Shown piece by piece: positions 1,600 through 57,405 of a DNA stretch of 64,000 nucleotides. Position 1 is the stretch's first letter; every line of letters begins with the position of its first letter. The stretch spans positions 12,648 through 76,647 of the forward strand of contig CAUWAX010000014.1 in NCBI GenBank assembly GCA_963557315.1, given 5' to 3'. The notes beneath the pieces were generated by a model. The model made no database searches. It saw nothing but the letters and a program-made list of their open reading frames with translations, and was not told where the DNA came from. The DNA comes from an uncultured Gemmiger sp. (GTDB taxonomy: Bacteria > Bacillota > Clostridia > Oscillospirales > Ruminococcaceae). The position numbers and the translations under genes were made by a program.

Positions 1600-1633
1600 G
1601 GAGTTTCTGCTTCCTTCTTTGCAAAGAAGGAAC
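1600..1633 (-). repeat. Intergenic hairpin repeat (IHR), copy 1, stem type A
   Basis: GGAGTTTCTGC-TTCCTTCTTTGCAAAGAAGGAA-C. It lies between the acyP stop (1649) and the terminator at 1564-1596. Confidence 0.9.
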
Positions 1634-1648
1634 AAACCGTTCCCCACT

Positions 1649-1933
1649 TTACTCGCCGCTGCGCTCCGAGAATCCGTACTCCTGCTCTTTCAGCGGCAGA
1701 TTTTCCACCGTCATGCCCTCGATGCGGGCCCAGCGGTTGGTATGTTCGATCAAAGGGATCAGCTTATCCAGTTTGGCGGCGTCGCCCTGGGCTTCCAGCG
1801 TCACGCTGCCGTCCCAGTTGTTGGCCACCCAGCCGGTCAGTTCCAATTTTTGGGCGGCGCAGCAGGCAAAATACCGGAACCCCACGCCCTGCACGCGGCC
1901 GGTAAACCGCCAGCGCCGACGAACGGTTTTCAT
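1649..1933 (-). CDS. acyP: Acylphosphatase
   Basis: 94 aa from the internal ATG at 1933 of ORF 1649..2179. Carries the acylphosphatase signature RFTGRVQGVGFRY. Its ATG overlaps the copA stop as ATGA. Confidence 0.85.
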   Translation of the reverse strand: MKTVRRRWRFTGRVQGVGFRYFACCAAQKLELTGWVANNWDGSVTLEAQGDAAKLDKLIPLIEHTNRWARIEGMTVENLPLKEQEYGFSERSGE

Positions 1934-4515
1934 CCCTCGATACCGGTCACGGTGTAGTCTTTCGCCTCCACGGCCGCCTGCAGGTCGGCGTCCGCCACCG
2001 GCTGGGAAAGGCTGACCACCGCGGTGCCGGCTTCGTGGCTGACGACGGCAGCTTCCACCCCGTCCAGCGCCTCCAGCGCCTTCTTGACGGTGGCTTCGCA
2101 GTGGGCACACATCATGCCCTCGATATGGATGGTCTTTTTCATAACGGGTACCTCCTGTTGGATAGGCTCTGCCGGGCAAGCAGCCGGGCAGGCAGCGGGC
2201 CGGGCCGGGGGTTCTTCCCGGGGCGGGGCCTTGTGTTTGGGCGGAGCATCGTGGTCGGCGTTGCGGGGGTCAAAGGTATTGAGCCGCAAGGCGTTGGTGA
2301 CCACACAGACGCTGGACAGACTCATGGCTGCCGAGGCGATCATGGGGTTGAGGGTGATGCCCAGCCCCGTAAAGACGCCCGCGGCCAGCGGGATGCAGAT
2401 GGCGTTGTAGAAGAACGCCCAGAAGAGATTTTCGTGGATGTTGCGCACCACCGCCCGGGAAAGCCGCACCGCCGCGGGCACGTCGGCCAAGTCGCTGCGG
2501 ACCAGCACCACGTCGGCGGCGTCCAGCGCCACGTCGGCCCCGGCGCCGATGGCAATGCCGGTCTCGGCCCGGGTCAGGGCGGGGGCGTCGTTGATGCCGT
2601 CGCCCACCATGGCCACCCGGCCCCCGGCCTGATGGCGGCGGACTTCGGCCTCTTTACCGGCGGGCAGCACCCCTGCCACCACATGGTCGGCGTCCAGCCC
2701 CACCATCGACCCGATGTGCCGGGCGGTGGCGGCGTTGTCCCCGGTGAGAAGCACCACGTTCAGGCCCAGAGCTTTCATCTGGGCGATGGCCCCCGCCGAG
2801 GTCTTTTTGACCACGTCGGACACACCGATGACACCCGCCGGGCTGCCCGCCAGCGAGAAGTAGAGTGGGGTAATGCCGTTCTGGCTCATCTGCTGTCCGG
2901 CCTCTTCCAAGTCGGGGGGCAGGACACAGGTTTCCCGGATGAAGTCGGCGTTGCCGCCGGCGATGACCTTGCCGGCCACCTTACCCCGCAGGCCCTTGCC
3001 GGGCACGGCGGTAAAGTCCGCCACGGCGGTGTACTTGATCTTTTCTTCCTCGGCCCGCTGCAAGATGGCCCGGGCCAAGGGGTGTTCGCTGCGCAGTTCC
3101 AGCCCAGCCGCCATGCTGAGGAGGAACTTTTCCGGCACGCGGCGGGTGCCTACGATCTGCACCACGCTGGGTTCGCCGGTGGTGATGGTGCCGGTCTTAT
3201 CCAGCAGCACCGTGTCGGTGTAGCCGGTGGTTTCCAGACTGGCGGCAGTCTTAAAGAGGATGCCATGCTTGGCGCCCACGCCGCTGCCCACCATGATGGC
3301 CACGGGGGTGGCCAGACCCAAGGCGCAGGGGCAGCTAATGACCAGCACCGAGATGCCCCGGGCCAGCGCATAGGGGAAGGTCTGGCCCAGCAGCAGCCAG
3401 ACAAGGAAGGTCACAGCGGCAATGGCCATGACGGCGGGCACAAACACGCCGGACACCTTGTCGGCGGTTTTGGCCAAGGGGGCCTTGGTGGCGGCGGCGT
3501 CCCGTACCAGCCGGATAACTTGGGAGAGGGTGGTATCCTGCCCCACCCGTTCGGCGCGGCAGGTCAAAGCGCCGTTCTGGTTGATGGTGGCGGCGCTGAC
3601 GGGGGAACCGGGGAACTTATCCACCGGCATGCTCTCGCCGGTGAGGGCGGCCTCGTTGACACTGGACACACCCTCGGCCACCGTGCCGTCCACCGGGATG
3701 GACTCGCCGGGCTTGACGAGGAAGAGATCCCCCACCGCCACTTCGCTGACCGGCACCGTCACCGGTTTGCCGTTCCGCAGCACGGTGGCGGTCTGGGGGG
3801 CCAGCTCCATCAGGCTTTTCAGGGCGTCGGTGGTGCGGCCCTTGCTGTATGCCTCCAAGGTCTTGCCCACCGTGATCAGGGTCAAAATCATAGCGGCGGA
3901 TTCAAAATACAGGTCGTGGCGGTATTGCAGCACCGTCCCCTCGTCCCCCGACGCCAACCCGGCGCCGATCATGATGAGGGCAAAGACACCGTAGGCCAAA
4001 GCTGCCCCCGCCCCCAAGGACACCAGCGTGTCCATGCCGGGGGCTTTGGTGCGCAGCCCGTTCCAGCCGCTGACAAAGAAGGCCCGGTTGATCCAGCAGA
4101 CCGGCAGGGTCAGGCCCAACTGCAAAAGGCCGTAGACCAGCGCCCCCGGACCGGCCCCCTCCAAGAAGGGGGGCAGCGGCAGGCCGATCATATGCCCCAT
4201 GGACAGGTACATCAGGGGCACCAAAAAGCACAGGCTGTGGATCAGCCGTTTTTTCAGGCGTGGGGTCTCGGTATCGTCCAAGGCGGCGTCCATCGTATCG
4301 TCGGCAAGGGCGGCGCCGTAGCCGGCGGATTCCACCGCCCGGCAGATGCGGGCTTGCAGTTTGGCTTCCTCGACGCCGGGGGCGGGCTGGACCTGCATGG
4401 AATTGGTCAGCAGACTGACCGAAACCGACTGCACGCCGGGCACCGCCGCCACGGCTTTTTCCACATGACTGGCACAAGCCGCACAGCTCATGCCGGTGAT
4501 TTCATAGCGTTGCAT
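1930..4515 (-). CDS. copA: Copper-translocating P1B-type ATPase with N- and C-terminal HMA domains
   Basis: 861 aa from ATG 4515 (MQRYEITGMSCAAC). Shows CPC in a TM helix, the DKTGT phosphorylation site and the GDGINDAP hinge. A second HMA domain (GMMCAHC) sits at the C-terminus. The upstream 80 codons of ORF 1930..4755 look non-coding. Confidence 0.93.
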   Translation of the reverse strand: MQRYEITGMSCAACASHVEKAVAAVPGVQSVSVSLLTNSMQVQPAPGVEEAKLQARICRAVESAGYGAALADDTMDAALDDTETPRLKKRLIHSLCFLVPLMYLSMGHMIGLPLPPFLEGAGPGALVYGLLQLGLTLPVCWINRAFFVSGWNGLRTKAPGMDTLVSLGAGAALAYGVFALIMIGAGLASGDEGTVLQYRHDLYFESAAMILTLITVGKTLEAYSKGRTTDALKSLMELAPQTATVLRNGKPVTVPVSEVAVGDLFLVKPGESIPVDGTVAEGVSSVNEAALTGESMPVDKFPGSPVSAATINQNGALTCRAERVGQDTTLSQVIRLVRDAAATKAPLAKTADKVSGVFVPAVMAIAAVTFLVWLLLGQTFPYALARGISVLVISCPCALGLATPVAIMVGSGVGAKHGILFKTAASLETTGYTDTVLLDKTGTITTGEPSVVQIVGTRRVPEKFLLSMAAGLELRSEHPLARAILQRAEEEKIKYTAVADFTAVPGKGLRGKVAGKVIAGGNADFIRETCVLPPDLEEAGQQMSQNGITPLYFSLAGSPAGVIGVSDVVKKTSAGAIAQMKALGLNVVLLTGDNAATARHIGSMVGLDADHVVAGVLPAGKEAEVRRHQAGGRVAMVGDGINDAPALTRAETGIAIGAGADVALDAADVVLVRSDLADVPAAVRLSRAVVRNIHENLFWAFFYNAICIPLAAGVFTGLGITLNPMIASAAMSLSSVCVVTNALRLNTFDPRNADHDAPPKHKAPPREEPPARPAACPAACPAEPIQQEVPVMKKTIHIEGMMCAHCEATVKKALEALDGVEAAVVSHEAGTAVVSLSQPVADADLQAAVEAKDYTVTGIEG

Positions 4516-4606
4516 GGTGGAGAACTCCTTTATTCGTGCTGGTGAACGGCAGCGGGCCACACAGGGCGCTGCCGGGGAATGTTGTTTTCGCCGCCCCTTT
4601 CCCACA

Positions 4607-5527: not shown

Positions 5528-6822
5528 GCTAAGGTATAGACGCCGTCACCCAGCGCCCGCAGATGCACCCGGTAGAAAGCCGCCACCGCCTGCACCATGG
5601 CGTTGGCGTCGGACACCGCGGCGGTCTCCACAGCGGAGTGCATGGCCAACTGGGCCAGCCCGATGTCCGCCATGGGGATGGGCAGCGTATGGCTTTGCAG
5701 GTTGCCCAGCGTACTGCCGCCGGGTTCGTCGGCCCGGTTGGTAAAGACCTGCACCTTGACGCCGGCTTTTTCGCAGATGGCCCGGAAGATGCCGCCGCTG
5801 AGGGCGTTGGTGGTGTATTTTTGGCTGGCGTTGTATTTCAGCACCACGCCGCCGCCCAGCCGCACCGGGGCCGCGGGGTCGCTCTTGGCCGCAAAGTTGG
5901 GGTGGGTGGCGTGGCCGTTGTCGGCGCTGAGCATAAAGCTGTTGGCCAGCGCCCGGTGTTCCATCTGGGCGCTGTGGGGGATGGCTTCCAAGATGCGGTC
6001 CAGCACGTCCCGCAAAAAGCTGCTCTCGGCGCCCTGCCGGCTGGAGGAACCTACCTCCTCGTTGTCCAGCATGGCCCACACCGGGGCGCAGGCGCTGTCG
6101 GTGTCGGCCGCCGCGTCGATAAAGCCCAGCAGCGTGGTGGCGGCGCACTCCAAGTCGTCGATGCGGGGGGCCATAAAGTATTCCCCATCCGGCCCGATGA
6201 CGGTGGGCGCCTGCCGGGTCACGAGCTGCAGATCTTGGTCGAGGATCTCCTCCGGGCGCACACCCAGTTCCTCACAGACCAAGTCGGTCAGGGTACGGCC
6301 CGCTTCGGGACCCCACAGGGGCTGCATGTCGATCTGGGGGTTGTACTCGTGGCCCTTGTTGACCTGCCGCTGCATATGGATGGCCAAGGACGGAATGACC
6401 AGCAGGTCCCGGTCAAGATGGACCAGCCGGGTCTCGACCCCATCCTCGGTGCGAAGCAGCACCCGGCCCGCCACCGTCAGGGGACGATCCAGCCAGGTGG
6501 CCATGTTCATGCCGCCGTAGCCTTCCACGCTCAGGCGGCGGCAGCCGTCGTTGGTCACGGCGTCGGACTTGATCTTCCAGCCCGGCGCATCGCTGTGGCT
6601 GGCGGTGATCCGCCACCCTCCGATGGCATGGTCGGGGATCCGCCACGCTACCACCGCCGAGCCGCCCCGGACCAGATAGTAGCCTTTGCCGGGTTCCAAA
6701 TTCCAGTAATCGGCTTCTTCCAGCCGGGTAAAACCGGCGGCGTCCAGCCAAGCGGCGGCGGTGGCCGCCGCGTGATAGGGGGTCACGCCCTCCTGTAAAA
6801 ACTCAAAAATATCATCGATCAT
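5524..6822 (-). CDS. M18-family aminopeptidase
   Basis: 432-aa ORF. Length and conserved blocks (HSDAPG, DNEEVGS, ADNGHATHPN) fit the aspartyl aminopeptidase (M18) family. Confidence 0.82.
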   Translation of the reverse strand: MIDDIFEFLQEGVTPYHAAATAAAWLDAAGFTRLEEADYWNLEPGKGYYLVRGGSAVVAWRIPDHAIGGWRITASHSDAPGWKIKSDAVTNDGCRRLSVEGYGGMNMATWLDRPLTVAGRVLLRTEDGVETRLVHLDRDLLVIPSLAIHMQRQVNKGHEYNPQIDMQPLWGPEAGRTLTDLVCEELGVRPEEILDQDLQLVTRQAPTVIGPDGEYFMAPRIDDLECAATTLLGFIDAAADTDSACAPVWAMLDNEEVGSSSRQGAESSFLRDVLDRILEAIPHSAQMEHRALANSFMLSADNGHATHPNFAAKSDPAAPVRLGGGVVLKYNASQKYTTNALSGGIFRAICEKAGVKVQVFTNRADEPGGSTLGNLQSHTLPIPMADIGLAQLAMHSAVETAAVSDANAMVQAVAAFYRVHLRALGDGVYTLA

Positions 6823-8025: not shown

Positions 8026-8062
8026 CTTTCCGGCCGATGTTCCCTCTTTGGGAGATCAGATC

Positions 8063-8096
8063 GGAATTTCTGCTTCCTTCTTTGCAAAGAAGGAAC
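8063..8096 (-). repeat. IHR copy 2, stem type A
   Basis: GGAATTTCTGC-TTCCTTCTTTGCAAAGAAGGAA-C, located 65 nt after the stop of the 8161..8742 gene. Confidence 0.9.
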
Positions 8097-8160
8097 AAAA
8101 ACAAGAGCCTTTTGCTGTACATCCTGCACAGCAAAGGCTCTTGTTCTTTATATAGATCGT

Positions 8161-9095: not shown

Positions 9096-9197
9096 CTTTG
9101 TTATAAAAACGCATTGCAAAGAAGTCCCTCCCCGCAGAATGGACACACCGGGCGGCGGGGGTTTTCCCTTACCATCCCATTCCCGGGCTATAAAATT

Positions 9198-9230
9198 GGA
9201 ATTTCTTCGGTTCCTTCTTTGCAAAGAAGG
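9198..9230 (-). repeat. IHR copy 3, type A (right stem truncated)
   Basis: GGAATTTCTTCGGTTCCTTCTTTGCAAAGAAGG. Confidence 0.85.
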
Positions 9231-9301
9231 TGGTTCCCGCAGGATAAACACACCGGGCGGCACGGTCTTGCCTCAACTACCCATTCCCGGGCTATAAAAT
9301 T

Positions 9302-9337
9302 GGAATTTCTTCGGTTCCTTCTTTGTAAAGAAGGAAC
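9302..9337 (-). repeat. IHR copy 4, type A (TGTAAA centre)
   Basis: GGAATTTCTTCG-GTTCCTTCTTTGTAAAGAAGGAAC. Confidence 0.9.
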
Positions 9338-9372
9338 AAAAAGGGGGCGGTCCCGGGGGACCGTCCCTTTTT
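9338..9372 (-). terminator. Intrinsic terminator of the amt-PII gene
   Basis: 10-bp GC stem (GGGGCGGTCC/GGACCGTCCC) with flanking A- and T-tracts, 9 nt after the stop at 9381. Confidence 0.75.
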
Positions 9373-13292: not shown

Positions 13293-13482
13293 GTTGACAC
13301 TCGTTCAATTTTACAAAATGTTCATATCAGTATCATAGTTTCTTAGCAGTTATCCTGTATTGTATTAGGCACAGGGAACCGGAGCCGCAACCGGAACCCT
13401 GGAACATGATTCCTCCTCACACCAAACCGATACCCCAAAATGCCCCCGCCCGGAGCCGCAACCGGACGGGGGCAATGCTTTT

Positions 13483-13517
13483 GTTCCTTCTTTGCAAAGA
13501 AGGAACCGAAGAAACTC
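13483..13517 (+). repeat. IHR copy 5, type A
   Basis: GTTCCTTCTTTGCAAAGAAGGAAC-CGAAGAAACTC. Confidence 0.9.
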
Positions 13518-13522
13518 TCATC

Positions 13523-13561
13523 AAAAATCCCCAGCTGGATTGTATCCAGCCGGGGATTTTT
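13523..13561. terminator. Bidirectional intrinsic terminator (3' of the hydrolase gene)
   Basis: AAAAATCCCCAGCTGGAT-TGT-ATCCAGCCGGGGATTTTT. Confidence 0.8.
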
Positions 13562-13610
13562 AGTCAGTGTTCTTTGGTCCCTTCTCTTCAGGAAATGAAC
13601 GGCACAACCA

Positions 13611-14555: not shown

Positions 14556-14631
14556 GGTCCCCTCCTTTGGGTTTGGGTTGGTTTCGTATCTTCATTAAAA
14601 CCAATTCCCTGTACTTTGTCAATATCTCCTT

Positions 14632-14667
14632 GTTCCTTCTTTGCAAAGAAGGAACCGAAGAAATTTC
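14632..14667 (+). repeat. IHR copy 6, type A
   Basis: GTTCCTTCTTTGCAAAGAAGGAAC-CGAAGAAATTTC. Confidence 0.9.
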
Positions 14668-14693
14668 AATCTTTTATCCCATGAATGGGTTCT

Positions 14694-15036: not shown

Positions 15037-15075
15037 AAAACGAACCCGCAGGGGGTTTCCCTGCGGGTTCGTTTT
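15037..15075. terminator. Bidirectional intrinsic terminator 3' of jag
   Basis: AAAACGAACCCGCAGGG-GGTTT-CCCTGCGGGTTCGTTTT. Confidence 0.85.
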
Positions 15076-15080
15076 GTATA

Positions 15081-15118
15081 AAGTTCTTTTGGTTCTTTTC
15101 TTACAAGCAAGAAAAGAA
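15081..15118 (-). repeat. IHR copy 8, variant stem
   Basis: AAGTTCTTTTGG-TTCTTTTCTT-ACAAGC-AAGAAAAGAA, between the jag stop (15126) and the terminator. Confidence 0.7.
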
Positions 15119-15125
15119 TAAACCA

Positions 15126-17353: not shown

Positions 17354-17410
17354 CCTACTTTCTTTGCAAAGACCTACTTTCTTTGCAAAGAAAGTAGGCA
17401 AAGAAACTCC
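17354..17410 (+). repeat. IHR copy 9, stem type B with a duplicated left half
   Basis: CCTACTTTCTTTGCAAAGA + CCTACTTTCTTTGCAAAGAAAGTAGG + CAAAGAAACTCC. Confidence 0.9.
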
Positions 17411-17824
17411 AAAAAAGTAGGAAGAAAAACTCTAAATAAAATAAAAAGAATATTACCGGGAATATAACCCAGCTCTGGTCAGGGCCCGCCTGCGACGGCG
17501 GGCAGGGTTTCAAATCGGGAGCCCGGGTGAGCTCTTTTGGTCGGCACGGGCAGTTTGGGTCGTAGAGCCGGACATCGCTGTGAAGAGCGGGAACCGTCTC
17601 GGGCGACCTCCTCGAAGCCCCGGGGGTTCTTAGGGGGCCCGCAGGCCCCATGAGCCGTGCCCCGCGCGTCGGAAGTAGCGGCGCGTTTTTCAGCCGCTTT
17701 TTGCGCGCTCAAAAAGCGGCACCGTCTGGAAGCGCATCGGTTCTGTGTTGCCCTCCGCAGTTTCTCAACTGCACTTTCCCCATTAGAAAAAAGCTACATC
17801 CCCAGGCAGCGCGAACCTCCCGGT

Positions 17825-19065: not shown

Positions 19066-20376
19066 ATGGATTCCATCAACGACGTATTGGACGCGGCGAA
19101 GGCCTATTGCCGTGAACATACTGCCGAGGCAACTTATCAATACTACATCAGCGACATTAAAGCCGTCAGCTTTGAAAATTCCAACACCATCACGCTGGAG
19201 ATCCGCAACGCCTTCATTCTGGGGATCGTTTCGGACCGGTACACGGCGATGTTGAAGGATGCCTTCAAGTCTGTTTTGGGGTTTGATGTCGATCTTGTCT
19301 TCGTAACTCCGAAAAAAGAGGAAGAACCGGAAAAGCCCAAGCTGGACGAAAAAACGCTGCCCAGCGGCCGGTATGATTTCACCTTTGAGAATTTCATCAA
19401 AGGACCGTCCAACCAGTTTGCCTACGCGGCAGCGCAGGCGGTGGCGGCGAATCCGTCGGGGGCGTACAATCCGCTGTTCATCTATGGACCGTCGGGACTG
19501 GGCAAGACCCATCTGCTCAACGCCATCCAGATCGAGATCAAAAAGAACCACCCGGATTTCAACATCGTCTACGTGGACTGTGAGATGTTCACCAACGAGA
19601 TCATCACGGCGGTGAAGACGGCGACCACCGAACAGTTCCGGCAGAAGTACCGTCAAGCGGACGTGCTGCTGATCGACGACATCCAGTTCCTTGCGGGCAA
19701 AGAGAGCACGCAGGAGGAATTTTTCCACACCTTCAACACGCTGCACAACGACGGGCGGCAGATCGTCATTGCGTCGGACCGTCCGGCCAAGGAGATCAAG
19801 AGTCTGGAAGAGCGGCTGCGCACCCGGTTTGAGTGGGGTCTGACGGCGGACATTCAGCCGCCGGATTTCGAGACCCGGGTAGCCATCGTGAAGCGGAAAG
19901 CCGAGCTGCTGAATCTGGACTTGCCGGATGACGTGGCGGAATACATCGCCAATCACCTGAAGCAGAACATCCGGCAGTTGGAAGGCGCGGTGAAGAAGCT
20001 GAACGCTTATTATATGTTGGAGGGCATTGCCCCCTGCATCGGCGTGACGACCACCGCCATCAAGGATACCTTGAACGACAGCCAGCCCATCCCGGTCACG
20101 ATCGAGAAGATCCTCAACGAGGTAGCCCGCACCTACAATGTGATGCCGGCGGATATCCGGGGCAAGAAGCGCAACGCCAACGTGAGCGCCGCCCGGCAGA
20201 TGACCATGTATATCATCCGGGAAGTGACCGGCATGAGCATGGAAGCCATCGGGCAGGAGTTCCAGCGGGATCATTCCACGGTGGTGTATTCCATCAAGAC
20301 GATGGCCGAAAACATCACCAAGGACCAACACCTCAAAGAGATGTGCAGCGACATCATGAAGAACGTCCGCACTTAA
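19066..20376 (+). CDS. dnaA: Chromosomal replication initiator protein DnaA
   Basis: 436 aa with the AAA+ Walker A GPSGLGKTHLL and a domain IV DNA-binding helix (HSTVVYSIK). Followed by dnaN. Confidence 0.97.
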   Translation: MDSINDVLDAAKAYCREHTAEATYQYYISDIKAVSFENSNTITLEIRNAFILGIVSDRYTAMLKDAFKSVLGFDVDLVFVTPKKEEEPEKPKLDEKTLPSGRYDFTFENFIKGPSNQFAYAAAQAVAANPSGAYNPLFIYGPSGLGKTHLLNAIQIEIKKNHPDFNIVYVDCEMFTNEIITAVKTATTEQFRQKYRQADVLLIDDIQFLAGKESTQEEFFHTFNTLHNDGRQIVIASDRPAKEIKSLEERLRTRFEWGLTADIQPPDFETRVAIVKRKAELLNLDLPDDVAEYIANHLKQNIRQLEGAVKKLNAYYMLEGIAPCIGVTTTAIKDTLNDSQPIPVTIEKILNEVARTYNVMPADIRGKKRNANVSAARQMTMYIIREVTGMSMEAIGQEFQRDHSTVVYSIKTMAENITKDQHLKEMCSDIMKNVRT

Positions 20377-20377
20377 T

Positions 20378-20413
20378 GTTCTTTCTTTACAAAAAAAGAA
20401 CCAAAGAAATTCC
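20378..20413 (+). repeat. IHR copy 10, variant stem
   Basis: GTTCTTTCTTTACAAAAAAAGAAC-CAAAGAAATTCC begins 2 nt after the dnaA stop. Confidence 0.8.
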
Positions 20414-20417
20414 AATC

Positions 20418-20441
20418 AAAATCGAACGATGTTCGATTTTT
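20418..20441 (+). terminator. Weak intrinsic terminator after dnaA
   Basis: ATCGAAC-GAT-GTTCGAT followed by TTTT; the stem is only 7 bp. Confidence 0.45.
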
Positions 20442-20485
20442 GGTTCAAAAAAGAAGGGTCATCCCTTCTCTGGAATGGTTATTTG

Positions 20486-20520
20486 AAAGTTCTTTGCCTA
20501 CTTTCTTTCAAGAAAGTAGG
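20486..20520 (-). repeat. IHR copy 11, stem type B
   Basis: AAAGTTCTTTG-CCTACTTTCTT-TCA-AGAAAGTAGG. Confidence 0.8.
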
Positions 20521-20687
20521 TTATCAACAAAGTTTTCCCTTTTCAACAGGCAGTTTTCAAGAGGCGCGGTGCAAAACCCAAGTTTTCCCTGTTTTCCACC
20601 GTTTTCTACACAGTCGGTGGAGAAAAACTCAACGGTAATTTTCCGCGCCGCTATCTGGTCTGGTGGAGTTTTCCACGGTTTTCACAC
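20521..20687 (+). promoter_or_regulatory. oriC DnaA-box array (dnaA-dnaN spacer)
   Basis: Six co-oriented boxes: TTATCAACA 20521, TTTTCAACA 20540, TTTTCCACC 20592, TTTTCTACA 20602, TTTTCCACG 20669, TTTTCACAC 20679. Weaker TTTTCC-type sites are also present. Confidence 0.75.
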
Positions 20688-22194: not shown

Positions 22195-23297
22195 TGCGCC
22201 TGACCCATCTGGAGCTGACCGACCACCGCAACCTGGCCCATGCTGTGCTGGACCCCGACCCCCACCTGACGGTGCTGTGCGGGCCTAACGGACAGGGCAA
22301 GACCAATTTGCTGGAAGCGGTGTGGCTGCTCACCGGGGGCAAGAGCTTCCGGGGTGCCAAGGACGCCGAACTGATCCGCCGCGGGTGCGAGTTTTCGGTG
22401 ATCGAAGGCGCGCTGGAAAGCGACGGCACCGAAAAGACCATCCGTCTGACGGTGGGGGCCAAGGGCAGTCAACGCCCCGGCCGCACCGCCAAGCTCAACG
22501 GGGTGGACCAAGGCCGAGCCGCGGCATTGGCGGGCAACTTTCAGGCCGTGGTGTTCGAGCCGGACCTTCTCTCGCTGGTCAAGGGCGGGCCGGAAGGCCG
22601 GCGCCGGTTTTTGGACGCGGCGCTGTGTCAGGTATTCCGGCCCTATCTGGTGGCGCTGCGCCGGTATATGCGGCTGGTGGCCCAGAAAAACGCCCTGCTG
22701 AAAAGTTATGACATCACCCCCAACGGGGCGCTGCTGCTGGACGCTTACAACGAACAGTTGGCCCAGTACGGCGGGCAGATCATGGCCCACCGGCAGCGTT
22801 TTGTGGAGGCATTGGCCCCGGTAGCGGCCCAAAACTATGCGGAAATTTCGCATGGTGCCGAGGTTTTTTCGCTGCGGTACCAATGCTGTGCCGCCCAGCC
22901 CACCGCCGAAGCGCTGGCCGAAAAGCTGGCGTCGGTGCGGGGCAGTGAACTGCGGATGGGCTTTTGCATGGTCGGTCCCCACCGGGAAGATCTGGACTTG
23001 CAGTTGGACGGCCAGCCCGCCAGGATCTATGGCAGCCAAGGCCAGCAGCGGAGCTGTGTGTTGGCCATGAAATTGGCGGAAGCCACGGTGGTAGGCGACT
23101 TTTTCGGGGAACACCCGGTGCTGTTGCTGGACGACGTGCTCAGCGAATTGGACGACGAGCGGCAGACCTACCTGCTGACCCGGATGGGCGAGCACCAGAC
23201 CATCGTGACGACCTGTGACACCGCCGCCTTTGCCCGGACCAACGGCAAGATCATCTATGTGAAGGCGGGACAGGCGTCGGAAAGTCCCATCGATTAG
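22194..23297 (+). CDS. recF: DNA replication and repair protein RecF
   Basis: 367 aa from ATG 22194 (overlaps the yaaA stop as TGATG). Walker A GPNGQGKTNLLEA, signature GSQGQQRS, Walker B LLLDDVLSELD. Confidence 0.93.
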   Translation: MRLTHLELTDHRNLAHAVLDPDPHLTVLCGPNGQGKTNLLEAVWLLTGGKSFRGAKDAELIRRGCEFSVIEGALESDGTEKTIRLTVGAKGSQRPGRTAKLNGVDQGRAAALAGNFQAVVFEPDLLSLVKGGPEGRRRFLDAALCQVFRPYLVALRRYMRLVAQKNALLKSYDITPNGALLLDAYNEQLAQYGGQIMAHRQRFVEALAPVAAQNYAEISHGAEVFSLRYQCCAAQPTAEALAEKLASVRGSELRMGFCMVGPHREDLDLQLDGQPARIYGSQGQQRSCVLAMKLAEATVVGDFFGEHPVLLLDDVLSELDDERQTYLLTRMGEHQTIVTTCDTAAFARTNGKIIYVKAGQASESPID

Positions 23298-23331
23298 AGT
23301 TTCTTTGCTTCTTTCTTTGCAAAGAAAGAAG
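23297..23331 (-). repeat. IHR copy 12, variant stem
   Basis: GAGTTTCTTTG-CTTCTTTCTTTGCAAAGAAAGAAG starts within the recF stop codon. Its right arm runs into the remB Shine-Dalgarno sequence (GAAGGAG). Confidence 0.8.
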
Positions 23332-23341
23332 GAGACGAACC

Positions 23342-25948: not shown

Positions 25949-25956
25949 CGGTTTTT

Positions 25957-25992
25957 GTTCCTTCTTTGCAAAGAAGGAACCGAAGAAACTCC
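25957..25992 (+). repeat. IHR copy 13, type A
   Basis: GTTCCTTCTTTGCAAAGAAGGAAC-CGAAGAAACTCC in the 70-nt gyrB-gyrA spacer. Confidence 0.9.
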
Positions 25993-26018
25993 AAACCAAT
26001 TCCAAGGTGGTACACTGA

Positions 26019-28577: not shown

Positions 28578-28794
28578 TTGATTTTTTGCTGTTCTTTTCT
28601 TGCTTCGGGCGCAGCGGTGCCAGCTCCCCGGCACCGTTCTGCTCTGCTGCCGGAGCACATCTGCTGTGTCACTCGGGCTTGCCATACATACAGTATGGCT
28701 GCCCCCTCCTTCCTTGCGGCTGTGCCCGGCAGCGAGCATTCCGGTACCGTTGTCTGACCCGCTGCACCCGGAAAAGAACCAAAAGAACTCTCAT

Positions 28795-28835
28795 AAAAAA
28801 TCCCCCGCAGGGTTACTACCCTGCGGGGGATTTTT
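28795..28835. terminator. Bidirectional intrinsic terminator (gyrA / ABC operon)
   Basis: AAAAAATCCCCCGCAGGG-TTACTA-CCCTGCGGGGGATTTTT. Confidence 0.85.
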
Positions 28836-28840
28836 CGTTA

Positions 28841-28875
28841 GAGTTTCTTCGGTTCCTTCTTTGCAAAGAAGGAAC
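28841..28875 (-). repeat. IHR copy 14, type A
   Basis: GAGTTTCTTCG-GTTCCTTCTTTGCAAAGAAGGAAC, between the permease stop (28889) and the terminator. Confidence 0.9.
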
Positions 28876-28888
28876 AACAGACAGACAA

Positions 28889-33003: not shown

Positions 33004-33078
33004 GGAGTTTCTTTTTGGAGTTTTTTTGGAGTTTCTTTGCCTACTTTCTTTGCAAAGAAAGTAGGCAAAGAAAGTAGG
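33004..33078 (-). repeat. IHR copy 15, type B, with a triplicated arm and duplicated right half
   Basis: GGAGTTTCTTTTT / GGAGTTTTTTT / GGAGTTTCTTTG-CCTACTTTCTTTGCAAAGAAAGTAGG-CAAAGAAAGTAGG. It abuts the TGA at 33079. Confidence 0.9.
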
Positions 33079-39092: not shown

Positions 39093-39136
39093 GAGATTCT
39101 CTGTACTTTTCTTATAAGAAAAGTACCAAAAGAATG
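39093..39136. repeat. IHR copy 16, two-armed full palindrome, variant stem
   Basis: GAGATTCTCT-GTACTTTTCTTATAAGAAAAGTAC-CAAAAGAATGTC. Both flanking arms are present and largely complementary to each other. Confidence 0.8.
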
Positions 39137-39142
39137 TCACCT

Positions 39143-39180
39143 AAAAATCCCCGTCCGGGTACCCCCGGGCGGGGATTTTT
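39143..39180 (+). terminator. Intrinsic terminator of nifJ
   Basis: AAAAATCCCCGTCCGGG-TAC-CCCCGGGCGGGGATTTTT. Confidence 0.85.
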
Positions 39181-39468
39181 GTTGCCGTTTTTCCGGTACC
39201 TTTCCTTACAAAAAGCACAGCGAAGCCCATACACCCTGCGAATCCTTACCGAAGCGGCAGGGGGGGCTGCTCTGGGGCAGCCGGGGCGTGGTTTTTTCCA
39301 AGACGGGGTGTTTTGCAGAGCAGGAGCTTGTCCCCACCGCGGGGGAAAACCCGCCCCGGCTTAGGCTATGGTACACCCGCTGCTTTCCCTCATAATCATC
39401 CCCCGCACCCCGCCCCGATCTTTGGCTTGCGGGTGTTTCTTGGCAAGAGGGGGGCCGAATCCCCATAG

Positions 39469-39507
39469 AAAACCGCCCGCTATGGAATTTCCATAGCGGG
39501 CGGTTTT
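39469..39507. terminator. Bidirectional intrinsic terminator 3' of uppP
   Basis: AAAACCGCCCGCTATGGAA-TT-TCCATAGCGGGCGGTTTTG. Confidence 0.85.
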
Positions 39508-39511
39508 GTTT

Positions 39512-39547
39512 GGAGTTTCTTCGGTTCCTTCTTTGCAAAGAAGGAAC
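39512..39547 (-). repeat. IHR copy 17, type A
   Basis: GGAGTTTCTTCG-GTTCCTTCTTTGCAAAGAAGGAAC, between the uppP stop (39561) and the terminator. Confidence 0.9.
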
Positions 39548-39560
39548 AAAAGCCCGGCGC

Positions 39561-41271: not shown

Positions 41272-41320
41272 GGTTTGGGCGGTGAACCCCCGTGACCGGG
41301 AATTTTTGGGCGTCTTGTTT

Positions 41321-41358
41321 AGAATTTCTTTGCCTACTTTCTTTGCAAAGAAAGTAGG
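41321..41358 (-). repeat. IHR copy 18, type B
   Basis: AGAATTTCTTTG-CCTACTTTCTTTGCAAAGAAAGTAGG. Confidence 0.9.
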
Positions 41359-41401
41359 GAAAGGCATACTTTTACAAAATTTGTAAGGGGGATCTGGTAG
41401 C

Positions 41402-42598: not shown

Positions 42599-42612
42599 CG
42601 GGGTATACTATT

Positions 42613-42659
42613 GGAATTTCTTCGGTTCCTTCTTTGTAAAGAAGGAACAAAGAAGGAAC
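42613..42659 (-). repeat. IHR copy 19, type A with a duplicated right half
   Basis: GGAATTTCTTCG-GTTCCTTCTTTGTAAAGAAGGAAC-AAAGAAGGAAC. Confidence 0.9.
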
Positions 42660-42675: not shown

Positions 42676-43629
42676 ATGAAAGCTATGACGATTGTACGCC
42701 GTATACTACCGCTGATGTTAGCCGTAACGCTGTTGGCGGGCTGTTCCAAGAAAGCGAAGGAACCGGAACCCACGCCGACACCGGTACCAACGGTAGCGCC
42801 GACGCCGGAACCCACCGCCACGCCGGAGAGTGCGTTGGTGATGGCGGCAGCGTCCAGCAACGCCACCAAGGACGCGCCGGAAGTGACCGACCCCACCACT
42901 TGGGACGAAGCGGGCAAAGCGTTGATGGAGCAGTTGGCGGAACAGTTTGCCGACGCGGGCATGACGCTGGACGCGCAGGAAGGATACCCCTACCTGTTGG
43001 CGGTAAACCGGGCAGCCAGCACGGTGACGGTCTACACCACCGACGAGGAGAACCGGTACACGGTACCGTTCATGGCGATGGTTTGCAGCGGCGGCGAGGA
43101 CACCCCCACGGGTTACTGGACCACCCCGGTGAACTATGACTGGCGGCTGCTGATGGGACCCAGCTATGGGCAGTACGCCACCCGCATCTATGGCGGGTAT
43201 CTGTTCCACAGCGTGCCCTATTACAGCCAGCACAAGGACGACGTGGAATACGACCAGTTCAACGAGCTGGGCAGCATTGCCAGCTTGGGCTGTATCCGGT
43301 TGGCGGTGGTAGACGTAAAGTGGATCTACGATAACTGCCCCATCGGTACGCCGGTGGTGATCTATGACGACGCGGAAAACCCCGGGCCGATGGGCAAACC
43401 GGGCACCATCTACACCGACCCGAAGGACGAGGAAAAGCGGGGCTGGGACCCCACCGACCCCGACCCGGCCAACCCGTGGGATGACAGCTACCTGACCGGC
43501 ACGGCTATCCGCAGCCAAGAGGCGTGGGACCAGTGGGACGCCGAACAGGAAAACTGGCTGGCCAGCCTGACCCCCACCGACCTGCAAGGCTGGAGCACCG
43601 ATTCCAGCATCGTGGGCACCCGCGGCTAA
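42676..43629 (+). CDS. L,D-transpeptidase (YkuD-domain) lipoprotein
   Basis: 317 aa. Lipobox LLAGC and the YkuD catalytic block HSVPY...SLGCIRL. Confidence 0.8.
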   Translation: MKAMTIVRRILPLMLAVTLLAGCSKKAKEPEPTPTPVPTVAPTPEPTATPESALVMAAASSNATKDAPEVTDPTTWDEAGKALMEQLAEQFADAGMTLDAQEGYPYLLAVNRAASTVTVYTTDEENRYTVPFMAMVCSGGEDTPTGYWTTPVNYDWRLLMGPSYGQYATRIYGGYLFHSVPYYSQHKDDVEYDQFNELGSIASLGCIRLAVVDVKWIYDNCPIGTPVVIYDDAENPGPMGKPGTIYTDPKDEEKRGWDPTDPDPANPWDDSYLTGTAIRSQEAWDQWDAEQENWLASLTPTDLQGWSTDSSIVGTRG

Positions 43630-43632
43630 CCA

Positions 43633-43666
43633 TCCTTTCTTTATAAAGAAAGGACCAAAGAATTTC
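43633..43666 (+). repeat. IHR copy 20, variant stem
   Basis: TCCTTTCTTTATAAAGAAAGGA-CCAAAGAATTTC, 4 nt after the stop and followed by the terminator. Confidence 0.8.
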
Positions 43667-43670
43667 AACC

Positions 43671-43702
43671 AAAAAGGCATGGTCTTAGGACCATGCCTTT
43701 TT
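43671..43702. terminator. Bidirectional intrinsic terminator shared by convergent genes
   Basis: AAAAAGGCATGGTC-TTAG-GACCATGCCTTTTT. Confidence 0.85.
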
Positions 43703-43706
43703 CTAT

Positions 43707-43744
43707 AGAGTTTCTTTGCCTACTTTCTTTGCAAAGAAAGTAGG
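43707..43744 (-). repeat. IHR copy 21, type B
   Basis: AGAGTTTCTTTG-CCTACTTTCTTTGCAAAGAAAGTAGG. Confidence 0.9.
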
Positions 43745-43761
43745 GCTTTATCAAGGAACCA

Positions 43762-55567: not shown

Positions 55568-55580
55568 AGCAAACCAAAAC

Positions 55581-55613
55581 AAAAATCCGGGAGCAGCCGC
55601 TCCCGGATTTCTT
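55581..55613 (+). terminator. Intrinsic terminator of the R-M gene
   Basis: AAATCCGGGAGC-AGCC-GCTCCCGGATTT followed by CTT. Confidence 0.8.
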
Positions 55614-55640
55614 ATCTTATAGGAATAGGGCAATAGTCTG

Positions 55641-56125
55641 TGACCCCGACGGGAATCTCCCGCGGGCTAACAAACAGTCCACCGGACTGTTCGTTGCGCG
55701 CTGCGGCGCGCCGCCCTGTATCGGGCGCGGGTGCCCCGCATCGGGCGACGCCCCTTGGGGCGGGGCTGGCCCTCTGCGACCCGCGGCCCTGCGACCGCAC
55801 CCTGCATCCGCCGCAGGCGGCGGTCGCCTGCGCAGCAATTCCTCGTACGGAAACAAAAAAATCTCCTCCAGCCTGAGCTAGAGGAAATTTTTTATGACCC
55901 GTACGGGAATCTCCCGCGCTCTAAAAACGCTCCGCAGGAGCGTTTTTGCCCACCGGAGCGAACGGTGGGCAAAAGCTTTTCGATTCCCGTACGTCGGCCC
56001 AAACTGTATAGAATAAGAGCTTTTTCCATAGCCCCGACGGGAATCTCCCGCGGGCTAACGAACAGTCCACTGGACTGTTCGTTGCGCACTGCGGTGCGCC
56101 GCCCTGTTCGATTCCTCGTACGGAA
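55641..56125 (-). repeat. Three units derived from the tRNA-Glu 3' end, downstream of tRNA-Glu
   Basis: Each unit is bounded by a direct copy (TGACCCGTACGGGAATC-type at 55641, 55897 and 56031) and an inverted copy (TTCGATTCC(T)CGTACG at about 55838, 55979 and 56108) of the tRNA-Glu T-arm/acceptor end. Confidence 0.8.
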
Positions 56126-56127
56126 GC

Positions 56128-56160
56128 ACAAAAATAACCCCCAGCCTAAGCTGGGGGCTT
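56128..56160 (-). terminator. Intrinsic terminator of the tRNA-Met/tRNA-Glu operon
   Basis: On the minus strand: AAGCCCCCAGC-TTAG-GCTGGGGGTT followed by ATTTTTG. Confidence 0.8.
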
Positions 56161-56165
56161 ATTTT

Positions 56166-56240
56166 TGGTGACCCGTACGGGAATCGAACCCATGTTACAG
56201 CCGTGAAAGGGCCGTGTCTTAACCGCTTGACCAACGGGCC
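56166..56240 (-). tRNA. tRNA-Glu (UUC), CCA encoded
   Basis: The reverse complement reads GGCCCGTTGGTCAAGCGGTTAAGACACGGCCCTTTCACGGCTGTAACATGGGTTCGATTCCCGTACGGGTCACCA. Anticodon loop is CTTTCAC. Confidence 0.9.
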
Positions 56241-56247
56241 ATATGAC

Positions 56248-56325
56248 GCAGGATTTCGCTAAAACAGCAAGCAACTTACCGACCACTGCTGCAATCGGCC
56301 CCCAAGTATTTTAGCGAAAGCCTGC
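56248..56325 (-). other. Long inverted repeat in the tRNA-Met/tRNA-Glu spacer
   Basis: GCAGGATTTCGCTAAAA (56248-64) pairs with TTTTAGCGAAAGCCTGC (56309-25): 17 bp with one mismatch and a 44-nt loop. Confidence 0.6.
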
Positions 56326-56329
56326 ATTA

Positions 56330-56406
56330 TGGTAGCGGTAACTGGATTTGAACCGGTGACACTTCGGGTATGAACCGAATGCTCTAGCCAACTGAGCTAT
56401 ACCGCC
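56330..56406 (-). tRNA. Elongator tRNA-Met (CAU), CCA encoded
   Basis: The reverse complement reads GGCGGTATAGCTCAGTTGGCTAGAGCATTCGGTTCATACCCGAAGTGTCACCGGTTCAAATCCAGTTACCGCTACCA. Confidence 0.88.
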
Positions 56407-56582: not shown

Positions 56583-57311
56583 ATGAAAATTTCTCTGCTT
56601 TTTGCGGCGGCCCTGCTGGCGCTGACGGCCTGTACCGCCGCTCCGTCCGAGAACGCGGTCTCGGATTCTGGTTCTTCCGCTGCGGCGCAGGCCACCCCCG
56701 ACCCCACCGAACCGCCCGACGCTACTCCGGCGCCCACGCCCCAAGCCACGCCGGTGCCGGTAGAAACAATGAAAGAACGATACATCGAAACATTCTCAGC
56801 GCCGGAAGCGGAAGTTGAAACCACGGTCACCGCCAATGGCTGCACCCTGACATTGGAGGATAGTCTGGACACCGAGCCGGAGTTGTTGGTCTATCTGGGG
56901 TATCTCTACGAAGTACAGGGAGAGGTCGAGAAGGTAGAGGGGTTGATAGGCGAGGATAACGCCCTCATGGGGGCAATGGGAACCACCGCCTGGATGTATC
57001 GGGACGGGGACCCGGAGATGGCCACTCAAACCATCCACGAACTGCACACCATGACATGGCAGGAGGTGGAGGGGGCTTCGAACTACACCCGTACCCAACT
57101 GCAGCAGTATCTGGCGGACTGCGACCTGCAGCAGTGGACGATGGTAGCGGTGGATCTGGACTGGACCTACACCCCAGAGAAGGAAGCCGCCGGTCCCCAA
57201 CTACCCGCAGGCCGCTACCAGCGGTATTTCCTGCTGGGCAGTCCTTCGGGCAGTAGGGAGCTGAAACTCTATGCCCTTTACTGGGAGGACTTTTACCCCC
57301 AGAAGTTATAA
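56583..57311 (+). CDS. Hypothetical lipoprotein
   Basis: 242 aa from ATG 56583 (AAAAGGAGGG upstream). Signal peptide plus lipobox LALTAC, then a Pro/Thr/Ala linker. Confidence 0.6.
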   Translation: MKISLLFAAALLALTACTAAPSENAVSDSGSSAAAQATPDPTEPPDATPAPTPQATPVPVETMKERYIETFSAPEAEVETTVTANGCTLTLEDSLDTEPELLVYLGYLYEVQGEVEKVEGLIGEDNALMGAMGTTAWMYRDGDPEMATQTIHELHTMTWQEVEGASNYTRTQLQQYLADCDLQQWTMVAVDLDWTYTPEKEAAGPQLPAGRYQRYFLLGSPSGSRELKLYALYWEDFYPQKL

Positions 57312-57332
57312 GAACAAAGGCGCAAAAGAACC

Positions 57333-57365
57333 AAAAAACGCATGGTCATGTGACCATGCGTTTTT
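57333..57365. terminator. Bidirectional intrinsic terminator (lipoprotein gene / serS)
   Basis: AAAAAACGCATGGTCA-TG-TGACCATGCGTTTTT. Confidence 0.85.
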
Positions 57366-57369
57366 CTTT

Positions 57370-57405
57370 GGAATTTCTTTGGCTCTTTCTTTGTAAAGAA
57401 AGAAC
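57370..57405 (-). repeat. IHR copy 22, variant stem
   Basis: GGAATTTCTTTG-GCTCTTTCTTTGTAAAGAAAGAAC, between the serS stop (57418) and the terminator. Confidence 0.85.

Follow-up and report, generated by a model that had tools for sequence, protein, structure and literature searches.

The origin region and its hairpin repeat

The 64,000-nucleotide (nt) stretch considered here, referred to in its full length as the window (contig CAUWAX010000014.1 of the uncultured Gemmiger sp. assembly GCA_963557315.1), is the oriC region of a Gemmiger (Oscillospiraceae) chromosome, Pfam annotation having revealed a Firmicute origin region in which rpmH-rnpA-yidD-yidC-jag face dnaA-dnaN-S4-recF-remA-gyrB-gyrA. 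Scattered between the genes of this region is a family of small palindromic repeats, each made of a hairpin and of a one-sided arm, that constitutes the subject of this study and whose members are listed in Table 1.

The original prediction, made from the letters of the window, had counted 22 copies of the repeat, and the same number is reached with a covariance model that has a 10-bp helix, was derived from 34 distinct copies and was run unfiltered over the 64 kb; 21 full-length sites scoring 31–72 bits are found and a split copy after gyrA brings the total to 22, to which four decayed relics, recognized from the model and the sequence at 11504, 13560, 14736 and 39178, are to be added. Simpler searches of the window yielded 10 matches to the 24-nt prototype when at most 3 mismatches were allowed (none in 100 shuffles), 9 matches to a 12-nt portion of the arm with up to 1 mismatch (0.24 expected) and 19 sites marked by the 14-nt main-type core TTCTTTGCAAAGAA with up to 2 mismatches. 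The repeats form a real and coherent family with a chance expectation of zero and, as originally claimed, all window copies lie outside called genes, the contacts with coding sequences (CDS) being just two: the stop codon of recF, whose TAG coincides with the first three bases of an arm (23295–23297), and that of a 56-codon open reading frame (ORF), adjoined by the copy at 33040–33078.

The wider sample consists of the window and of at least 112 genome tiles obtained by a one-genome-per-species scan in which hairpin core and arm served as the query; six related metagenome contigs are designated L001–L006 and the further loci bear higher numbers. Among the matches listed, every tile belongs to one of about 20 assemblies that bear the name Gemmiger or “Subdoligranulum”, to unnamed Clostridia or to bins labelled Bulleidia or Collinsella. 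The tiles were selected for the presence of at least one main-type copy and many of them are mutually orthologous, the independent numbers being smaller than the raw counts; genes were called in-house by a crude codon model trained on the data, whose calls match the metagenome gene calls around oriC.

In the fetched DNA the density of the family amounts to roughly one copy per 3–4 kb, with ~200 distinct sites in 725 kb from ~20 Gemmiger-type assemblies among the matches listed, and the family is likely confined to the genus Gemmiger. The element is also carried by contigs with other labels, namely L010, L018, L044, L049 and L066 (Bulleidia-labelled bin) and L009 and L078 (Collinsella-labelled bins); since these share the Gemmiger-like GC content of 0.57–0.62, they probably come from Gemmiger and were wrongly binned or labelled in public metagenome-assembled genomes.

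Anatomy and covariation of the unit

The unit of ~45 nt comprises a hairpin of 24–26 nt and an A-rich arm of ~19 nt found on one side only. The stem is perfect and 12–13 bp long and the loop, mostly UGCA, has 4 nt; the inner 6–7 bp are fixed, TTCTTT/AAAGAA being invariant, while the outer five pairs differ among copies and yet remain complementary, the outer stems seen being GTTCC, GTTCT, GTCCT, CTTCT, CCTAC, GTACT, CCTGC, CCCAC and GCCCT. The arm that accompanies the main-type core reads CRAAGAAAYTCYAA or, in its fuller form, CRAAGAAAYTCYAAWCAAA. A second type, hereafter subfamily 2, has the core TTTTCTTGCAAGAAAA, shifted by one base (GTTCTTTTCTTGCAAGAAAAGAAC + CAAAAGAACTCT), and takes in the “degenerate” copies found in the window after jag and nifJ. 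The arm is an almost constant component of the unit, being missing in just 2 of the 286 hairpins recorded by a core-independent detector.

The alignment of the 34 distinct copies has 97% of its cells paired and double-sided changes at 5 of the 10 pairs, and its covariation score was matched by none of 500 shuffles; over positions 3–12 of 159 copies, 98.4% of the pairs are Watson–Crick. RNA folding of the uppP unit and of the 43.6-kb doublet gave z scores from −6.7 to −8.8 with the structure as predicted, the uppP unit reaching −48.8 kcal/mol (z = −8.8). The copies of the GTTCC type are preceded by a T-run that, read as a 5′ U-run in the RNA fold, can pair with the arm and lengthen the stem and, in the doublet formed by elements 20 and 21, the two arms pair around the terminator at 43674–43699. 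That the hairpin itself be an intrinsic terminator was ruled out; its stem is AT-rich and followed by the A-rich arm, there is no U-tract and the true terminator is a separate structure located downstream.

Placement of the copies with respect to genes

In the window and tiles taken together only 5 of 204 copies fall within called CDS, though these make up 81% of the DNA, and the number of copies per spacer is 0.93 for convergent, 0.21 for co-directional and 0.05 for divergent genes. The sense copies, 103 of the 159 that can be classified, are found close to the stop codon; 85 of them start within 30 nt and 68 within 15 nt, the median distance being 11–12 nt, and as many as 9 of the 23 sense copies of the CCTAC type start at the first base after TAA or TGA. 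The convergent spacers contain 72 copies, 68 of which are closer to the gene for which they are sense. The antisense copies of co-directional spacers have their hairpin facing the next start codon, at a median distance of 86 nt, so that both classes obey the same rule: the hairpin abuts the end of a gene and the arm points to the interior of the spacer.

The succession stop codon, hairpin, arm and intrinsic terminator, reported originally for nine genes (acyP, jag, dnaA, an ABC permease gene, nifJ, uppP, an L,D-transpeptidase gene, the gene at 43762–45321 and serS), was encountered in all nine, the terminator stem starting a few nucleotides past the arm in each case. The names given to the genes agree with Pfam, apart from the “GT39” assignment of the gene at 43762–45321, which is weak, being a single PMT_2 match below the Pfam cut-off. 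About 10 of the roughly 25 terminator-like hairpins of the window (~40%) are associated with the module. As to the earlier estimate that two thirds of the copies are in sense orientation, the figure itself was reproduced (16 of 22 in the window and the above-mentioned 103 of 159), but it is driven by the convergent pairs, mostly because a copy located in a convergent spacer always has a gene for which it is sense, the copies in co-directional spacers being mostly antisense.

The sequence preceding the arm (...CCCGGGATAAAAGGTTG) resembles a −10 element and a promoter function of the antisense copies was therefore considered and rejected; at least five of the six hexamer positions match in only 6 of 52 cases, there is no consistent −35 and, furthermore, the same module follows the sense copies, where it points the wrong way. 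In the one window available for this comparison the orientation of the copies does not flip across oriC (5 minus and 3 plus on the left, 9 minus and 5 plus on the right), and there is therefore no sign of lagging-strand targeting of the IS200/IS605 kind.

Doublets built around bidirectional terminators

When two hairpins lie no more than 160 nt apart, their arms point inward in 34 cases and outward in none, and these arms-inward doublets occupy at least 29 distinct flank pairs or gene contexts. Their centre-to-centre spacing is mostly 94–99 nt, with a bidirectional terminator consisting of A5, stem and T5 in between, and their ends (TGTTC...GAACA) are inverted repeats by construction. The pairing of the units is largely heterotypic, a main-type unit facing one of subfamily 2 in 25 of 30 doublets compared with an expectation of 30% (p about 1e-9). 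Doublets are present in the window at 28589–28879 and 43628–43747 and, in half-decayed form, at 13479–13604 and 39099–39222. The stems of the enclosed terminators vary by compensatory substitutions.

The intrinsic terminators form, more generally, a few recurrent families, whose members occur at non-orthologous positions of many loci and differ by compensatory stem changes. Three are found in the window: the ATCCCC..GGGGAT family at 13527–13557, 28799–28832 and 39146–39177, the GGCATGGTC..GACCATGCC family at 43674–43699 and 57337–57362, and a TCGAAC..GTTCGA type at about 20420–20445.

Conservation and turnover

In orthologous doublets of different species hairpin and arm are 95–97% identical, compared with 66% for the enclosed terminator and 74–78% for the final 300 nt of the adjacent genes. 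Conservation exceeding that of the neighbouring genes points to a recognizing factor, and the high conservation of hairpin and arm as opposed to the freely varying terminator stem fits the earlier suggestion that the element is recognized by some factor.

An element is readable at the 3′ end of dnaA in 11 of 11 orthologues, 5 of them scored by the detector, with stems that differ. At the 3′ end of gyrA the detector finds it in 10 of 12 orthologues, a split copy being present in those of the window and of L001; at that of jag in 10 of 12, the copies of the window and of L001 being unscored and readable by eye; the 3′ end of uppP has it in 6 of 7, the seventh (L117) being truncated by the stop codon. 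The 3′ end of gyrB is polymorphic, since 7 of 14 orthologues have a hairpin no more than 40 nt from the stop (sense in 5, antisense in 2), and so is that of recF, while rpmH never has a hairpin (0 of 12). The position of element 10, located between dnaA and dnaN, is kept in 7 strains with stems of the CCTAC, GTTCT or GTACT type. Orthologous 3′ ends thus retain a hairpin, but its type varies between lineages.

Indeed, contigs encoding an identical DnaA protein have swapped unit types at the flanks of the gyrA terminator, and entire copies have been gained or lost. The spectra of stem types are unlike between genomes (permutation p about 1e-4), which reflects lineage-specific amplification. Some copies provide genes with their stop codon: the TAG of recF is part of the arm, the hairpin contains the end of a uppP orthologue and one dnaA stop overlaps the first base of the stem. 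Other copies are nested (17355–17440), split by a different repeat (28600–28775) or tandemly duplicated together with a 60-nt module (9160–9368). Type turnover, amplification by lineage, nesting, supply of stop codons and inverted doublets are the hallmarks of a population of repeats akin to the repetitive extragenic palindromes (REPs). No conserved target was detected, the 5′ flanks of the CCTAC-type copies displaying just a weak ...A preference.

Relation to known repeats and to the resident RAYT/REP system

A search of the whole window against Rfam 15 at the gathering threshold returned three tRNAs only, and the E-value mode applied to 39050–43800 gave only sub-threshold chance matches to hairpins; in the searchable literature there was no report linking Gemmiger or Subdoligranulum with such repeats, nor was the core sequence found. 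In agreement with the original prediction, no description of the family was found in Rfam or in that literature. By inspection, no match was seen between the repeat and the consensus of parS, dif or attC, nor with DNA uptake sequences or operators already known. A phage origin was discarded in view of a single match in 2.9 million viral contigs.

Five other Gemmiger tiles (L017, L020, L032, L072 and L115) have, between gyrB and gyrA, a gene resembling those of the REP-associated tyrosine transposases (RAYTs), located at 6021–6482 in L020 and at 4293–4853 in L072; it matches Pfam Y1_Tnp with E = 1e-10 and NCBIfam REP_Tyr_transpos with 79.2 bits, to be compared with a cut-off of 80. The REPs of these genomes are GC-rich and tagged with GTAG, and two of them interrupt the RAYT ORF of L072. 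The GTAG REPs number 121, spread over 47 of 118 loci, but are missing from the window and from L001–L006, where the hairpin family is abundant; the window also lacks the RAYT gene. As these genomes were covered by tiles, a second RAYT may lie elsewhere in them. The hairpin family therefore thrives without the RAYT/REP system. As to the hairpin units themselves, GTAG occurs only in the CCTAC...GTAGG type, which accounts for about a quarter of the copies, and there it lies inside the stem.

The family is of a known kind, that of the small extragenic palindromic repeats arranged in mosaics comparable to the bacterial interspersed mosaic elements (BIMEs). Like REPs and BIMEs, it consists of extragenic palindromes of 20–40 nt present in hundreds of copies, mainly at the 3′ ends of genes and between convergent genes. 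The E. coli BIME is made of two REP types in inverse orientation with a linker between them (PMC3333891), y being paired with z1 or z2 as the main type is paired here with subfamily 2. The variation of stem positions that remain complementary, the supply of stop codons, of which REPs are capable (PMC3733652), and the interruption by insertions of other elements are further shared traits. What is new, besides the unrelated sequence, is the host phylum, a Firmicute; the stem, which is AT-rich instead of GC-rich and perfect; the long conserved one-sided arm; the linker, which here is a complete bidirectional intrinsic terminator; the conservation above that of the neighbouring genes; and the independence from the co-resident RAYT/REP system, the RAYT of the genus being paired with another repeat.

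With the REPINs of Pseudomonas fluorescens the family shares inverted doublets as what appears to be the recurring unit, a dominant sequence accompanied by variants in each genome and a lineage-specific composition suggestive of ongoing copying (PMC3116915, PMC8049555). The two parts of a REPIN, however, are nearly the same and separated by a short spacer devoid of function, whereas here they come from different subfamilies and enclose a terminator; moreover, dependence on a RAYT is unsupported for the hairpin family. Like MITEs (miniature inverted-repeat transposable elements) and IS200/IS605-derived palindromes, the units are small, non-coding, intergenic, multi-copy and hairpin-forming, but, unlike MITEs, they have no separate terminal inverted repeats, neither a target-site duplication nor a conserved target tetranucleotide was found, and their 45 nt are below the usual size. 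Inverted motif pairs at gene-end terminators are formed also by the DNA uptake sequences of Neisseria and by tandem-hairpin terminators, to which the family may bear some resemblance; the present hairpin differs in having no U-tract, in being apart from the terminator and, with respect to uptake sequences, in being absent from coding DNA, and it is not known to be linked with competence.

A REP-like population with a probable role in 3′ untranslated regions

On balance, we lean toward the view that the repeat represents a genus-specific REP/BIME-like (or REPIN-like) family of extragenic palindromes, unrelated in sequence to the known ones, whose sense copies are plausibly elements of 3′ untranslated regions (UTRs). 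Copying at the DNA level, either by mobilization or by gene conversion carried out by an enzyme, would keep the population uniform, and the copies would survive at places where they do no harm or are of use, namely downstream of stop codons. Flanked by stop codon and terminator, the sense copies would belong to the 3′ UTR of the mRNA, if the terminators are used; co-transcribed with the gene, they would fold into a stable stem-loop that would block 3′-to-5′ exonucleases and/or modulate termination and read-through, in the manner of the E. coli REPs. A function of the hairpin in the 3′ UTR is likely by analogy with the REPs and BIMEs of enterobacteria, known as 3′-UTR stabilizers and terminators (PMC3333891, PMC3733652, PMC1525189); a preprint likewise describes the E. 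coli REPs as combined terminators and mRNA stabilizers in 3′ UTRs (bioRxiv 10.64898/2026.03.23.713779).

Several observations weigh against this reading, concerning both the role of the transcript and the mobility of the unit. About one third of the copies are antisense to the local genes, and in co-directional spacers the antisense copies outnumber the sense ones (52 vs 31), most of them being without an adjoining terminator; that the hairpin is part of the mRNA we infer only from its position upstream of a terminator. The mismatches of the sense copies, small in number, comprise 5 G·U (G·T) and 9 A·C; there is no excess of G·U, so that RNA is not singled out over DNA as the form under selection. 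Three further strains having an identical aminotransferase have identical layouts without polymorphism and turnover is therefore not rapid. No clean empty site was seen among the orthologous loci compared, no target-site duplication or other direct repeat was detected next to doublets or single units, and no mobilizing enzyme was found in the fetched DNA, about 1 Mb of which showed no related autonomous insertion sequence either. The RAYT gene, where present, is flanked by the different, GTAG-tagged GC-rich REPs GTAGGGCGGGGTCTTGACCCCGCC or GTAGGGGCCGGGCATGCCCGGCCC; the main types (GTTCC, GTTCT, GTCCT and CTTCT) and subfamily 2 lack the GTAG/CGTC tag that marks the 5′ foot of a REP, and the stem mismatch of canonical REPs is absent from the hairpin copies. 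Finally, the p-values are optimistic because the gene calls are crude, the tiles were selected for the presence of copies and the loci are partly orthologous.

The original prediction favoured an RNA-level action of the element over a neutral MITE. In its strictest form, in which hairpin and arm are a dedicated RNA signal (a protein-binding site, a terminator enhancer or a 3′-end stabilizer) selected gene by gene, this premise would account for the fixed and tightly spaced order of stop, hairpin, arm and terminator, for an inner stem and arm that are nearly invariant next to an outer stem that merely pairs and to a drifting terminator stem, and for the occurrence after the same stop codons across species. 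It is nevertheless a rather unlikely explanation, being difficult to reconcile with antisense copies that, in spite of having their arm read as its complement, are equally well conserved, with the lack of wobble asymmetry, with the turnover of stem types at the same site in strains having an identical DnaA, with the amplification of types by lineage, with nested, split and tandemly duplicated copies and with the distal copy of the doublets, which, being located past the terminator, transcription would rarely reach. The antisense third, the palindromes lacking a G·U excess, the turnover of types and the doublets leave “RNA level rather than MITE” not established; on the other hand, as neither a target-site duplication nor a transposase was found, a classical MITE has not been demonstrated either. 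A purely selfish or neutral element of the MITE or REPIN kind, whose bias for 3′ ends reflects tolerance or a preference for insertion near terminators, has a slightly better, still low, probability. High copy number, restriction to the genus, polymorphism of presence and type, lineage-specific stem spectra, provision of stop codons, nesting and the sharing of spacers with several other MITE-like repeats all speak for it, and Gemmiger is called MITE-rich in a survey of conserved MITEs (PMC11602168). Apart from the missing duplication, autonomous relative and cognate transposase in the fetched DNA, this view meets with the stability of close strains, with the maintenance of the position after particular stops across species and with an identity exceeding that of adjacent coding DNA; furthermore, tolerance fails to explain a median distance of 11 nt within spacers of 100–300 nt, or divergent spacers that are nearly empty.

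Near-perfect palindromes, a symmetric covariation devoid of strand-specific wobble, the occurrence of copies in both orientations and doublets capable of forming long cruciforms would all be understandable if the repeat were a site acting at the DNA level, a double-stranded or cruciform target through which a nucleoid protein, gyrase, a recombinase or a partition protein structures the chromosome. The E. coli REPs and BIMEs, which bind gyrase and IHF, lend some plausibility to this idea, the IHF site being located in the BIME-1 linker (PMC3333891). A dimeric double-stranded DNA target gives, however, no reason why the outer positions should stay complementary, and the polarity toward stop codons and the one-sided arm would be unexpected for a chromosome-structuring site, which, taken together with the dissimilarity to the parS, dif and attC consensus noted above, makes this alternative improbable. 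Least probable of all, and largely refuted, is that the hairpins are the cognate canonical REPs of the Gemmiger RAYT. A RAYT-like gene does exist in several Gemmiger genomes, the CCTAC...GTAGG stems contain the CTAC/GTAG tetranucleotides and at times a GTAG REP accompanies the hairpin in a composite that is itself repeated; yet the RAYT is flanked, and even interrupted, by the other repeat, all 121 GTAG REPs lie outside the hairpin-rich window and L001–L006, and most hairpins lack the GTAG as well as the stem mismatch, both needed by E. coli TnpA-REP, whose binding requires a mismatch or bulge in the stem (PMC3333891).

A more daring proposal, to which we attribute a small chance only, is that main-type unit, terminator and subfamily-2 unit constitute a self-homogenizing “terminator cassette” that spreads independently of RAYT and would be recognized by a structure-specific protein through the invariant inner stem and the arm. 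Such a cassette, if real, would hand genes a ready-made 3′ end, complete with stop codon, protective hairpin and bidirectional terminator, and the genus would have a 3′-UTR architecture written by a mobile element and conserved beyond the genes themselves.

To our knowledge, REP-type repeats have been studied almost solely in Proteobacteria, where their function is debated. The hairpin family would offer an independent system with REP logic in an abundant Firmicute of the human and animal gut and, since here the hairpin is physically apart from the terminator, the roles of stabilizer and terminator can be tested separately. The co-residence with the GTAG-REP/RAYT system allows a natural comparison between RAYT-dependent and RAYT-independent repeat populations. 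In practical terms, the elements will interrupt short-read assemblies and mislead binning, as perhaps illustrated by the Bulleidia and Collinsella labels, may be used as a genus marker and matter for the design of expression constructs in Oscillospiraceae and for the interpretation of 3′-end RNA data.

Inventory of the window and accompanying observations

Table 1. Hairpin elements of the window, with the relics and terminators of the doublets. Scores are those of the covariance model; distances run from the stop codon to the hairpin.
Feature	Coordinates	Strand	Score (bits)	Distance (nt)	Type and structure	Context
Element 1	1594..1637	-	49.2	~15	CTTCC/GGAAC type stem; arm shortened	after acyP stop at 1649 (acylphosphatase Pfam match), ahead of terminator 1566-1593
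Element 2	8057..8100	-	43.1			terminator 8100-8155 between gene stop 8161 and hairpin
Element 3	9192..9237	-	40.6		left half of hairpin damaged	within 104-nt tandem duplication
Element 4	9296..9341	-	63.6		GTTCC	3′ of amtB-glnB fusion gene and terminator 9344-9367
Element 5	13479..13524	+	70.1		GTTCC	followed by bidirectional terminator 13527-13557
Doublet relic	13560..13604	-	12.6		decayed partner of element 5	far side of terminator
Element 6	14628..14673	+	61.3		GTTCC	antisense to both neighbours; ~76 nt upstream of hydrolase start
Element 7	15074..15123	-	31.3	6	subfamily 2; core TTTTCTT..AAGAAAA; 3-nt loop insertion	after jag stop at 15126, ahead of terminator 15040-15072
Element 8	17355..17440	+	53.6		full CCTAC-type copy 17374-17416 within older split copy (17355-17373 + 17417-17440)	antisense; yidC-yidD spacer
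Element 9	20374..20419	+	63.7	1	GTTCT	after dnaA stop; terminator about 20420-20445
Element 10	20479..20524	-	34.5		CCTAC; 1-nt loop deletion	dnaA-dnaN spacer, oriC
Element 11	23290..23335	-	65.4		CTTCT	antisense; arm supplies recF stop TAG; hairpin end overlaps ribosome-binding site of next gene
Element 12	25953..25998	+	68.8	8	GTTCC	after gyrB stop, without terminator, within gyrB-gyrA unit
Element 13	28589..28797	+			subfamily 2; hairpin split by 176-nt insertion (28600-28775); right half and arm 28773-28797	directly after gyrA stop; intact counterpart in L079, L101
Bidirectional intrinsic terminator	28799..28832	.				common to elements 13 and 14 (doublet)
Element 14	28834..28879	-	69.2	13	GTTCC	after ABC (FtsX) permease stop
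Element 15	33022..33078	-	55.5		CCTAC; right half duplicated (33066-33078); arm motifs triplicated upstream (32998-33039)
Element 16	39099..39144	+	31.0	21	subfamily 2; stem GTACT	after nifJ stop, ahead of terminator 39146-39177
Doublet relic	39178..39222	-	11.8		decayed partner of element 16
Element 17	39506..39551	-	72.5 (top score of all copies)	13	GTTCC	after uppP stop, ahead of terminator 39471-39505
Element 18	41315..41361	-	57.2		CCTAC	antisense; 41 nt upstream of aminotransferase start
Element 19	42607..42652	-	62.6		GTTCC	antisense; aminotransferase stop to L,D-transpeptidase start
Element 20	43628..43673	+	50.0	3	ATCCT/GGAC	after L,D-transpeptidase stop
Bidirectional terminator	43674..43699	.			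GGCATGGTC..GACCATGCC family	between elements 20 and 21
Element 21	43701..43747	-	50.5	16	CCTAC	after stop of gene 43762-45321
Element 22	57364..57409	-	63.6	12	GCTCT/AGAAC	after serS stop, ahead of terminator 57337-57362

Some copies deserve additional mention. Element 10 adjoins a sequence resembling a DnaA box (TTATCAACA) on the margin of the cluster of DnaA boxes. The tandem duplication at 9160–9368, which contains elements 3 and 4, has a 104-nt unit made of hairpin, arm and a module of ~60 nt (..TTTTATAGCCCGGGAATGGG..CCGCCCGGTGTG), present twice in the window, once in L001 and three times in L003 at another site (about 5560–5880). The 176-nt insertion at 28600–28775, which splits the loop of the subfamily-2 hairpin after the gyrA stop, is GC-rich; being 84–86% conserved in L093, L114 and L080 it is therefore old and possibly functional, perhaps as a small RNA.

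Other repeats occur in the spacers. Mosaic MITE-like repeats of ~300–400 nt are found in the window at 23603–23959 and 17411–17824 and, partially, at 50661–50769; copies are present in more than 20 fetched loci, the spacer occupied differing by strain, and one end of the repeat bears a hairpin related to the element (GACTTTTTCGGTTCCTTTTTGGTCACTCAAAAAGGAAC). An AT-ended repeat of ~230 nt (ATAATAAATAATAAATAAGAAAGAATAAATCAGGAATGCGCGCC...) fills the recF-remA, remA-gyrB, gyrB-gyrA and yidC-yidD spacers of L004, L006 and L115, the same spacers that hold hairpin elements in the lineage of the window.

An island located between 50 and 56 kb has about ten terminator-like hairpins and not a single hairpin element, as expected for recently acquired DNA. 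It includes a low-GC stretch (about 50300–56400; GC 0.50 over 52–56 kb) with an MmeI-type restriction-modification gene (52745–55567), and is bordered by tRNA genes (50263; 56169; 56333) and by repeats (55629–56107). The 3′ end of the tRNA gene at 50263–50336 opens a series of perfect 128-nt tandem repeats (50327–50454 and 50455–50582), the third unit of which is partial and consists of its first 51 nt, down to 50633; a stretch of 85 nt of the unit is recopied with 92% identity at 50771–50855. Each 128-nt unit contains a terminator-like hairpin, and the repeats resemble reiterated attachment sites.

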